Positions 45,840-48,600 of a DNA stretch of 64,000 bases are shown here, piece by piece. Origin of the DNA: Escherichia coli (lineage in GTDB: Bacteria; Pseudomonadota; Gammaproteobacteria; Enterobacterales; Enterobacteriaceae); assembly GCF_030013205.1 (NCBI RefSeq), contig NZ_CP122648.1. The stretch is one strand, 5' to 3'. The translations under genes were made by a program, and so were the position numbers. The notes beneath the pieces are model-generated. The model had not been told where the DNA came from and did not search any database. It was given only the letters and a program-made list of their open reading frames with translations. Each line of letters begins with the position of its first letter. The first letter of the stretch is position 1.

Positions 45840-46532
45840 ATGAAAAAGATTCATGCAATAATTTTATTATCTTCTCTGACCTCTGCCTCGGTATTTGCTG
45901 GCGCATACGTCGAAAACAGGGAGGCATATAATCTCGCCTCCGATCAGGGCGAGGTTATGCTACGTGTGGGTTATAACTTCGATATGGGCGCGGGTATTAT
46001 GTTAACCAATACCTATAACTATCAGCGAGAAGATGAACTAAAACATGGATATAACGAAATCGAAGGTTGGTATCCTTTATTTAAACCAACCGATAAATTA
46101 ACCATCCAGCCCGGTGGCTTAATTAATGATAAGAGTATCGGTTCGGGTGGTGCTGTTTATCTGGATGTTAACTACAAATTTACTCCGTGGTTTAACCTGA
46201 CAGTGCGTAATCGCTATAACCATAATAATTACAGTTCTACAGATTTGAGCGGGGAACTGGATAATAATGACACCTATGAAGTTGGCACCTACTGGAATTT
46301 TAAAATCACCGAGAAATTCTCCTATACATTTGAACCACATTACTTCATGCGAGTAAATGACTTTAATAGCAGCAATGGAAAAGATCATCACTGGGAAATC
46401 ACTAACACCTTCCGTTATCGCATTAATGAACACTGGCTGCCTTATTTCGAATTACGCTGGTTAGATCGTAATGTCGAACCGTACCACCGCGAGCAAAACC
46501 AGATTCGTATCGGGACGAAGTATTTCTTCTGA
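45840..46532 (+). CDS. ompL: Outer-membrane porin OmpL (230 aa)
   Basis: Signal peptide MKKIHAIILLSSLTSASVFA; beta-strand-rich ORF ending in terminal Phe (..RIGTKYFF). Confidence 0.85.
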   Translation: MKKIHAIILLSSLTSASVFAGAYVENREAYNLASDQGEVMLRVGYNFDMGAGIMLTNTYNYQREDELKHGYNEIEGWYPLFKPTDKLTIQPGGLINDKSIGSGGAVYLDVNYKFTPWFNLTVRNRYNHNNYSSTDLSGELDNNDTYEVGTYWNFKITEKFSYTFEPHYFMRVNDFNSSNGKDHHWEITNTFRYRINEHWLPYFELRWLDRNVEPYHREQNQIRIGTKYFF

Positions 46533-46541
46533 TGTGAAACT

Positions 46542-46619
<78 letters not shown>

Positions 46620-47303
46620 TTAATTGTGCACAGAAAACCCCCAGCTAGGCTGGGGGTTCCGGAAAGCTTTCAGCTTTGAGCCAGTTATTAAAACCCCTTT
46701 TGATTTGTTAAAACACCTTGCGGTCTGGCAACTGCAAGTGTCAAACAAGAAATCAAAAGGGGGTCCCAATGGGGAACGAAAAGAGCTTAGCGCACACCCG
46801 ATGGAACTGTAAATATCACATGGTTTTTGCGCCAAAATACCGAAGACAGGTGTTCTACAGAGAGAAGCGTAGAGCAATAGGCAGTATTTTGAGAAAGCTG
46901 TGTGAGTGGAAAAGCGTACGGATTCTGGAAGCTGAATGCTGTGCAGATCATATCCATATGCTTGTGGAGATCCCGCCTAAAATGAGCGTATCCGGGTTTA
47001 TGGGATATCTGAAAGGGAAAAGCAGTCTGATGCTTTACGAGCAGTTTGGTGATTTGAAATTCAAATACAGGAACAGGGAGTTCTGGTGCAGAGGGTACTA
47101 CGTCGATACAGTGGGTAAGAACACGGCGAAGATACAGGATTACATAAAGCACCAGCTTGAAGAGGATAAAATGGGAGAGCAGTTATCGATTCCCTATCCG
47201 GGCAGCCCGTTTACGGGCCGTAAGTAACGAAGTTGGATGCAAATGTCAGATCGTGTGCGCCTGTTAGGGCGCGGCTGGTAAGAGAGCCTTATAGGCGCAT
47301 TTG
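46620..47303 (+). mobile_element. IS200 (IS200/IS605 family) insertion sequence; boundaries approximate
   Basis: Y1 transposase gene flanked 5' by the characteristic structured leader: perfect hairpin acccccagc-tag-gctgggggt (46637..46657) and a 13-bp inverted repeat ccccttttgattt / aaatcaaaagggg (46694..46762) that sequesters the Shine-Dalgarno. Confidence 0.75.
46769..47227 (+). CDS. tnpA: IS200 transposase TnpA (HUH/Y1 family, 152 aa)
   Basis: MGNEKSLAHTRWNCKYHMVFAPKYRRQVFY...HIHMLVEIPPKMSVSGFMGYLKGKSS... is near-identical to IS200 TnpA as I recall it. Confidence 0.9.
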   Translation: MGNEKSLAHTRWNCKYHMVFAPKYRRQVFYREKRRAIGSILRKLCEWKSVRILEAECCADHIHMLVEIPPKMSVSGFMGYLKGKSSLMLYEQFGDLKFKYRNREFWCRGYYVDTVGKNTAKIQDYIKHQLEEDKMGEQLSIPYPGSPFTGRK

Positions 47304-47327
47304 AAAAACCTCCGGCTATGCCGGAGG
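47304..47327 (-). terminator. Rho-independent terminator of yihN
   Basis: cctccgg-ctatg-ccggagg followed on the minus strand by a T-run. Confidence 0.55.
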
Positions 47328-47334
47328 ATATTTA

Positions 47335-48600
47335 TTAAGCTTCAGCCGCCAGCATCTCTTTCTTACGTTGGCTAATACGCTTAACCAGCATTACGGAAAC
47401 CACCGCACCACAGAATGCGAAGCAGGCCATAATGCCAAACACGATTTTGTAGCCAATAATCCCCGGATTTAAATCCAGAATGTAGCCATACAGACTGAAG
47501 CAGAACATCGCCGGGGCGTAACCAATAAAGCTACCCAACGCCATCGCCGCGCCTGTTTTATTTTCAGCAATTTTTGCTTCGCCGATAGGTGCAAAAAATA
47601 CGGCTCGCTGTGTAAAGACTATCGCGCCAAAGCCCAGCGTACATGCCATCCCTAAATATACCGGCATACTTTCGTGCGGCAGCATAATCAACAGTACGAG
47701 CGCAGCGGTACTGATGATAAAGGTGTAGCATAGATATTTACTCGGCGATTTCAGGATCTTATCTGAAATCATGCCACCAATCGGTCCACCAATCATTTTC
47801 AGACAGTATTGGTTAATGATGCCGTAAGCCCCCACCAGCGCAACGGGCAATAGATAGATGTTTTTCAGGAATGGAATGAAGAATGTCAGGCCACAGTAAA
47901 CCGCGTAAACGAAGAAGACGTTGAAAGCGATAAGCCAGATAGTTTTGTCTTTCAGCACCGAGGTCATACTGGTGTTTTTCGATGCTCCGTCTTCTTTTTT
48001 CACCTCAACGGACGGTGCCTCTTCTTTGTCATTCAGAACAAAGAAAATGATAATGCCTACGGCAATCACAATAAGGGAATAGAACCAGATGCCTGCTTTA
48101 AAACCCAATAAGCCACTGCCAAACCAGGTAAATACTGCCAACGCAGAAAATGCCACCACGGTATCGACAATGCCACGCCCTGTTTCGAAGAAGCCAAACA
48201 ACCGACCTTGTTGTTCGCTATTGCCCAATCGACTTACCGACTTGAGCAAGACCGGCCAGTTCATCATGTCGCAAGTAACGCCAAATAGCGCCCAGACAAA
48301 GAGGATGCCCCAATACCCCGGCATTGTCGTCAAATAAACACCCAGTAATCCTGTCGCAATGAGTGAGAATGACATGGTGTATCTGCGCGGTAGTTTATCG
48401 GCAAAATAAATAGACAGAAAAAAGCCCACTGTCGTGACAAATGAGTTTACCGACATAGCATTACCAATTTGACCATTGGTCAAATGGAAATATTCCTGCA
48501 TCGGGATATAAAACGCATCTTTCAGCGACGGTAATTTATAAATTGTACCGCCACACAATGTTAATAGACTAAATAACGCCCATTTCTTTTTCGTGAGCAT
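47335..48600 (-). CDS. yihN: MFS transporter YihN (421 aa)
   Basis: 421-aa 12-TM major-facilitator ORF. Confidence 0.85.
   Translation of the reverse strand: MLTKKKWALFSLLTLCGGTIYKLPSLKDAFYIPMQEYFHLTNGQIGNAMSVNSFVTTVGFFLSIYFADKLPRRYTMSFSLIATGLLGVYLTTMPGYWGILFVWALFGVTCDMMNWPVLLKSVSRLGNSEQQGRLFGFFETGRGIVDTVVAFSALAVFTWFGSGLLGFKAGIWFYSLIVIAVGIIIFFVLNDKEEAPSVEVKKEDGASKNTSMTSVLKDKTIWLIAFNVFFVYAVYCGLTFFIPFLKNIYLLPVALVGAYGIINQYCLKMIGGPIGGMISDKILKSPSKYLCYTFIISTAALVLLIMLPHESMPVYLGMACTLGFGAIVFTQRAVFFAPIGEAKIAENKTGAAMALGSFIGYAPAMFCFSLYGYILDLNPGIIGYKIVFGIMACFAFCGAVVSVMLVKRISQRKKEMLAAEA

Follow-up and report, generated by a model that had tools for sequence, protein, structure and literature searches.

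An intact IS200C element in the ompL-yihN spacer of Escherichia coli lies directly 3' of a REP-like hairpin

The stretch of Escherichia coli DNA analysed here, 64 kb in its full length and referred to as the window, contains the convergent genes ompL and yihN, and the 90-bp spacer between them, near yihO, yihP and yihQ, carries a mobile element. This location, which had been given in a preliminary description of the same DNA, agreed with the annotation of the occupied genomes and with the synteny of K-12. The ompL gene ends at 46532, well away from the element, and the right end of the element reaches into the stop codon of yihN. The evidence given below makes it very probable that the plus-strand segment between 46626 and 47336 is an intact and ordinary copy of IS200C, a member of the IS200 group of the IS200/IS605 family. 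IS200C is a named element, already known, and is annotated in RefSeq at this site. The features of the locus, from left to right, are as follows.

46541-46572, no strand assigned: canonical REP palindrome in the flanking DNA, downstream of the ompL stop codon.
46594-46625, plus strand: REP-like hairpin TGGCCGGAT-taagccac-ATCCGGCCA followed by TTAATT; it is the flanking target and not a part of the element, which starts directly after it.
46626-47336, plus strand: complete IS200C element of 711 bp, delimited by empty-site comparison and end-to-end alignments.
46633-46637, plus strand: GAAAA, a candidate guide directly 5' of the left-end hairpin.
46636-46658, plus strand: left-end perfect palindrome AACCCCCAGC-TAG-GCTGGGGGTT (DNA fold of -11.7 kcal/mol, z -4.0), corresponding to columns 1-23 of the Rfam model STnc490.
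About 46688-46777, minus strand: antisense RNA art200, expected from homology to the Salmonella map.
46694-46762, plus strand: stem-loop masking the Shine-Dalgarno (SD) sequence, which buries AAGGGGGT at 46757-46764, from the Rfam structure line.
46769-47227, plus strand: tnpA, starting with ATG at 46769 and encoding a Y1 HUH transposase of 152 aa, with the stop codon at 47225-47227.
47303-47336, plus strand: right end, consisting of GAAAAA, the hairpin CCTCCGGC-TAT-GCCGGAGG (47309-47327) and the tail ATATTTATT.
47335-47337, minus strand: yihN stop codon TAA, of which two of the three bases are the last two of the element; its sequence is unchanged.

The longest open reading frame inside the insert (46718-47227) is that of tnpA, read from its ATG. 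The 152-aa product matched the Pfam family Y1_Tnp (PF01797) with 129 bits (E-value 9.7e-38, cutoff 23) and the NCBIfam equivalog model transpos_IS200 with 147 bits (cutoff 55). On comparison with the solved structures of the TnpA proteins of Sulfolobus, IS608 and ISDra2, E-values from 4e-23 to 1e-15 were obtained. The protein contains the HUH motif (H61-I62-H63) and Tyr125, and the Y125F form is the catalytically dead TnpA mutant of Salmonella IS200 (Ellis 2015, PMC4513863). The label given to tnpA by PGAP/RefSeq at this site is IS200C family transposase, and the element was found to be 98-100% identical over positions 1-711 to E. coli copies labelled IS200C; the name used here rests on that label and on the identity to copies so labelled. 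The element has no tnpB, tnpA being its sole gene, and its length of about 0.7 kb is that of the IS200 group. Further open reading frames of up to 121 aa lie on the opposite strand of the insert and are unannotated in RefSeq, and no second copy of IS200C was found in the 64-kb window. The earlier description of the element as a complete IS200-type copy was borne out by the full 1-711 alignment and by the presence of a Y1 transposase, of a terminator hairpin at the left end and of the stem-loop masking the SD sequence. No observation spoke against this identification. Truncation of the transposase or of the ends was ruled out by the same alignment to other IS200C copies, and a place in a different subgroup of the IS200/IS605 family was ruled out by the PGAP label together with the close alignment of the copies that share it.

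The left part of the element (46636-46759) matched the Rfam family STnc490 (RF01405) with 146 bits (gathering score 56, E-value 3e-31), covering positions 1-124 of the 124 positions of the model. The RNA fold of 46665-46790 had an MFE of -41.4 kcal/mol (z -3.35), and the folds of the left-end region agreed with the published map of Salmonella IS200, in which a palindrome at nt 12-34 of the left end acts as a bidirectional terminator blocking incoming transcription and the SD-masking stem-loop is placed at nt 69-138 (Ellis 2015, PMC4513863). In Salmonella, IS200 is held almost silent by the weakness of its promoter, by the terminator hairpin at the left end and the stem-loop burying the SD sequence, and by the antisense sRNA art200 together with Hfq (PMC4513863). 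The left-end palindrome of the window copy is also presumed to be the left-end hairpin bound by TnpA. At the other end, the right-end hairpin had a DNA fold of -10 kcal/mol (z about -3.4), and this end was identical in 12 other E. coli copies. A separate observation concerns the Rfam model itself. It matched the plus strand, which is the tnpA-sense strand, with the left-end terminator hairpin included, and STnc490/art200 has been described as antisense to the 5'UTR (Ellis 2015, PMC4513863); the model as built seems to describe the sense-strand structure.

The ends of the element were read from a comparison of occupied and empty sites. A query consisting of both flanks returned many genomes in which ompL and yihN lie about 90 bp apart, and the sites were read in strain 135, KE55 and K-12 MG1655. 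In these strains the empty site is ...CATCCGGCCATTAATT/AAGCTTCAGCC..., where the slash marks the insertion point, and the occupied site is ...GGCCATTAATT followed by the element, GTGCACAG...GGAGGATATTTATT, and then by AAGCTT.... On the strength of these two sequences the insert is 711 bp long and spans 46626-47336; owing to a 3-bp ATT ambiguity at the boundary, 46623-47333 is equally possible. The preliminary description had placed the element at 46620-47303, which started 6 bp too early and ended 33 bp too short, and the comparison with empty sites that it proposed, run on the three strains, fixed the ends to within 3 bp. The 711-bp query aligned from 1 to 711 with copies elsewhere in E. coli; the 12 copies at 10 other E. 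coli loci start with GTGCACAG and end with GGAGGATATTTATT in unrelated flanks. Furthermore, the alignment with IS1541 of Yersinia pestis ran from end to end with 87% identity and stopped exactly at 47336. Terminal inverted repeats are absent, as the beginning, GTGCACAG..., does not recur in inverted form at the end, ...ATATTTATT. A target-site duplication is also absent, the only overlap being the 3-bp ATT at the empty site, which was not repeated at the 10 other sites with their differing right flanks.

The right end of the element bears directly on yihN. The terminal TT of the element replaces the two bases that were displaced and rebuilds the yihN stop codon, and the YihN accession (WP_000956312.1) is the same in strains with and without the element, in keeping with the earlier statement that no gene is disrupted. 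On the minus strand, the right-end hairpin follows the yihN stop codon directly and is itself followed by TTTTTC, which gives it the form of a canonical intrinsic terminator; the hairpin (47327-47309) was scored as terminator-like on both strands. It had been read as the native yihN terminator, with the element ending near 47303 and the hairpin at 47305-47328 belonging to the gene, and its position immediately past the yihN stop codon together with the TTTTTC gives that reading its plausible look. This assignment is refuted by the empty sites of K-12, strain 135 and KE55, in which the hairpin is missing and the 90 bp of the spacer consist entirely of REP sequence; moreover, an identical hairpin and tail end IS200C copies at unrelated loci as well as IS1541 of Y. 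pestis. The hairpin thus lies inside the insert and is the right end of the element, absent from the empty sites and present at the end of every other copy examined. The case calls for caution, since a hairpin adjoining the stop codon of a gene was that of a mobile element and not that of the gene.

The native spacer has only REP hairpins, which lack a T-tract on the minus strand, and from its form the right-end hairpin probably now terminates yihN on that strand. The local consequences of the insertion are small. That the host has co-opted the element, either as a stronger yihN terminator or through its regulatory RNAs (5'tnpA and art200) acting in trans, is very unlikely in our estimate. The canonical terminator formed by the right-end hairpin and TTTTTC, in place of a native REP hairpin without a T-tract on that strand, speaks for such a role, and a precedent for action in trans is provided by 5'tnpA of Salmonella, which regulates invF and virulence regulons (PMC5435999; bioRxiv 10.1101/2024.06.26.600842). 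Against co-option, there was no sign of selection, and no more than 17 of the 5,426 complete E. coli genomes have the element at this site; the same sRNAs would be supplied by other IS200C copies in the same genome; and the geometry in which the element abuts a convergent gene recurs elsewhere simply through the target rule described below.

To the left of the element, the flank consists of REP-type sequence. REP elements had been noted there from the sequence, and their palindromes are visible directly; the REP-derived Rfam family naRNA4 gave matches of 40.6 and 25.7 bits over 46536-46608, both of which are sub-threshold (gathering score 59.5). The REP-like hairpin next to the element (46594-46619) had a DNA fold of -10 kcal/mol (z -3.9), was flagged as terminator-like and is also present in the empty sites. 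In three pig strains from Japan, IS1397 is annotated between ompL and IS200C (EC556, stretch L137, 1121-2469; EC571 and EC581, with the same query start). The homology of these strains to the window begins at 46556 (query start 157), about where IS1397 lies, and all three carry the I18 form of tnpA described below. As IS1397 is annotated beside IS200C, the 90-bp spacer has taken two different elements.

The 17 genomes in which the site is occupied, with the element annotated there in RefSeq, are all pig-derived (ETEC or O139:H1; South Korea, Japan and other sources), and IS200C-like sequence was found in 3,095 of the 5,426 complete E. coli genomes, at up to 35 places per genome. The element had been regarded as strain-specific mobile DNA, and the empty site in K-12 MG1655 and the small number of occupied genomes uphold this. 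The insertion took place in an ancestor of a pig ETEC/O139:H1 lineage, and the occupied site is usable as a lineage marker for such strains. A single base, at 46822 (element nt 197), separates the window copy from the commonest variant; the window copy has G there, where 11 of the 12 compared copies have A, and this gives M18 in place of I18 in TnpA. K_EC180 and CFSAN018748 also have the M18 form, which on this sequence comparison seems to mark a sublineage of IS200C in pig strains.

Whether the element still moves can be judged from the same copies. IS200 is notoriously inactive and nearly immobile in the laboratory (PMC4513863). The window copy is identical in 711 of 711 positions to the copy beside ymgL in CFSAN018748, a pig strain with 31 matching places, and because this identical copy lies at another locus, the exact sequence has moved recently. 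It was therefore considered rather unlikely that the element is a structurally intact but silent passenger, that is, one old insertion inherited vertically with no further transposition and no effect on the host. The very low transposition rate of IS200 and its several layers of repression (PMC4513863) are consistent with such a passenger, as are the fixation of the insertion within one pig-associated lineage and the M18 substitution, a conservative change in a beta-strand of TnpA. The recent movement indicated by the identical copy in a strain with 31 places, and the intact state of the catalytic residues and of both ends, argue against it.

The sites chosen by other copies were compared with that in the window. 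The 12 copies at 10 sites were taken from an evenly spaced sample of the E. coli matches, and at all 10 sites the element begins, to the exact nucleotide, directly after a GC hairpin and a T-run, with the flank ending in TT at the junction. The upstream hairpin is mostly the terminator of a co-directional gene (secF, yfeX, htpX, emrB, ydgA and potE), and the right end of the element frequently adjoins a convergent gene at its stop codon. Such abutting or overlapping of a convergent stop codon, as with yihN, was seen at pbp4b (stretch L130, 863), yebQ (L132, 860) and uidC (L134, 863), and in the case of yebQ two bases of a TAA stop codon once more come from the terminal TT of the element. The survey was extended across taxa with one genome per species, using the exact 20-mer of the left-end hairpin, and at least 120 stretches were obtained. 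The matches came from assemblies of Enterobacterales, Vibrio, Oxalobacter, Mailhella/Desulfovibrio, Bacillota, Saccharibacteria and Elusimicrobia, and those in distant phyla, which frequently lie at the ends of contigs, imply either wide horizontal spread or binning artefacts of metagenome-assembled genomes. A strict terminator test was passed by 86 of 113 unique left flanks across taxa, as compared with 0-1 of 113 controls, for which the sequence 100-200 nt upstream was used. The mean MFE was -19.1 kcal/mol for the left flanks and -8.8 kcal/mol for the controls (P about 1e-30), and the left flank ends in TT in 89 of the 113 cases; in the window it ends in ...TTAATT.

Two other accounts of these sites were rejected. 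T-runs alone do not explain them, as such a hairpin was found at only 21 of the 260 runs of five or more T in the window (8%) as against 76% of the junctions. Targeting specific to REP sequences had been suggested by best matches sharing 15-30 bp of REP-like left flank, and it was set aside because the 12 copies at 10 sites were all at ordinary terminators. The target in the window is atypical in being a REP-like hairpin with the tail ATTAATT and no T-tract, and it fails the strict terminator test. The element lies directly 3' of this hairpin and its AT-rich tail, the site reading ...GGCCGGATtaagccacATCCGGCC-ATTAATT up to the junction. The window target is thus the kind of site that the element uses elsewhere, namely a hairpin followed by a T-rich tail.

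The target also resembles the right end of the element itself, in which a hairpin is followed by ATATTTATT up to the junction. In addition, each end hairpin of the window copy is immediately preceded on its 5' side by GAAAA(A) (46633-46637 and 47303-47308). Of 127 distinct copies from the various taxa, 112 have xGAAAAC ahead of the core of the left-end hairpin, whereas nt 1-6 of the element vary. By analogy with the IS608 model, GAAAA may be a guide that pairs with the T-rich cleavage and target sites. We suggest tentatively, and at somewhat less than an even chance, that TnpA would choose its targets by structure, reading a single-stranded hairpin with a T-rich tail as a mimic of the right end, with GAAAA pairing to the T-tract. 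The preference for hairpins could also come about through the better survival of harmless insertions rather than through recognition by TnpA. REP hairpins are substrates of the related RAYT enzymes. Statistical enrichment of IS200-group insertions at terminators has been reported in a preprint of 2025-26 (bioRxiv 10.1101/2025.07.22.666184); apart from it, full-text searches returned no explicit account of the target rule in the literature that they covered.

Two further arrangements of the element's sequences were noticed in other species. In Y. pestis NCTC5923 (stretches L080 at about 350, L081 and L083), copies of IS1541 stand in head-to-tail tandem, with the right end ...GGAGGATATTTATT directly abutting the next GTGCCCAG; such tandems would be expected if the right end of the element were itself a preferred target. 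In Dickeya undicola (stretch L073), a stand-alone perfect palindrome of 43 nt, GTCTATAGAAAACCCCCAGC-TAG-GCTGGGGGTTTTCTATAGAC, was found without the usual element sequence after it. In it the element's first 20 bases and their reverse complement flank a TAG loop, and it could be either a remnant or some small derivative.

On the basis of its homology to the TnpA proteins of IS608 and ISDra2, TnpA of IS200C would move the element as single-stranded DNA by a peel-and-paste pathway. The protein would bind single-stranded DNA at the hairpins close to the two ends and cut the tnpA-sense strand, by which a single-stranded circle would be released, and the circle would then be pasted 3' of a short T-rich site without duplication of the target. 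The strand on which the element lies is of interest for such a pathway, as IS608 and ISDra2 have been reported to prefer the lagging-strand template. In the window the tnpA-sense strand is the C-rich strand (GC skew over the 64 kb of -0.016), and by synteny with K-12 MG1655 (4062247-4064295) it is the leading-strand template. The orientation here, as read from skew and synteny, is the minority one under a replication-coupled model, and one insertion is no test of a preference. Of 83 insertions, 70 had a positive local GC skew in the sequence upstream, a count confounded by coding-strand composition since that sequence mostly belongs to a co-directional gene, and by this local measure the window copy would also be positive, against the 64-kb skew and the K-12 synteny. 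The inference of replication orientation from the 70 of 83 was set aside for that confounding.

When compared with known systems, the element agreed closely with IS200C and IS200 of E. coli and Salmonella, which have a 152-aa tnpA alone with the HUH motif and Y125, a length of about 707-711 bp, a left-end terminator hairpin at nt 11-33, the SD-masking stem-loop and the right-end hairpin, and neither inverted repeats nor a target duplication. It differs from other IS200C copies in the conservative I18M change, which is common to other pig strains, and in a target made of a REP-like hairpin and an AT-rich tail instead of a terminator with a T-tract. IS1541 (IS200G) of Y. pestis, with its 87% identity from end to end, shares the left-end hairpin and the right end and sits at sites of the same kind, after a hairpin and a T-run; it is separately named and begins with GTGCCCAG where the window copy begins with GTGCACAG. 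In one Y. pestis assembly it occupies at least 40 distinct insertion sites, some of them as head-to-tail tandems. The resemblance to IS608 of Helicobacter pylori and ISDra2 of Deinococcus radiodurans is more distant. They share with the window copy a homologous Y1 HUH TnpA (E-values of 1e-18 and 2e-16, respectively), hairpins at the ends, insertion 3' of a short specific sequence and a possible guide 5' of the foot of each hairpin. Unlike the window IS200C, they carry tnpB and use the targets TTAC or TTGAT, for which no need of a hairpin is known, whereas IS200C has no tnpB and takes T-rich tails after hairpins as its targets, and the orientation of the window copy is opposite to the preference for the lagging-strand template. 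The use of extragenic palindromes or terminators as landing sites is shared with IS1397 and other REP-targeting IS and with the class C group II introns, the latter of which insert after intrinsic terminators. The enzymes concerned are unrelated to TnpA, as IS1397, a REP-specific element, has a DDE transposase of the IS3 family and the introns move by a retro-homing ribozyme. Furthermore, IS1397 inserts inside the REP palindrome, whereas IS200C lands 3' of the hairpin.

If the targeting of IS200C were guided by structure, only the mechanism and the rule at the level of nucleotides would be new. Such a mechanism would explain why the element lands precisely at the ends of intrinsic terminators and occasionally after REP hairpins, as in the window, and the association with terminators would then be built-in targeting and not only the survival of harmless insertions. 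The position of IS200-group elements directly after terminator-like hairpins, to the single nucleotide and in many phyla, bears in a modest way on the general question of how single-strand transposons find places where insertion is safe.
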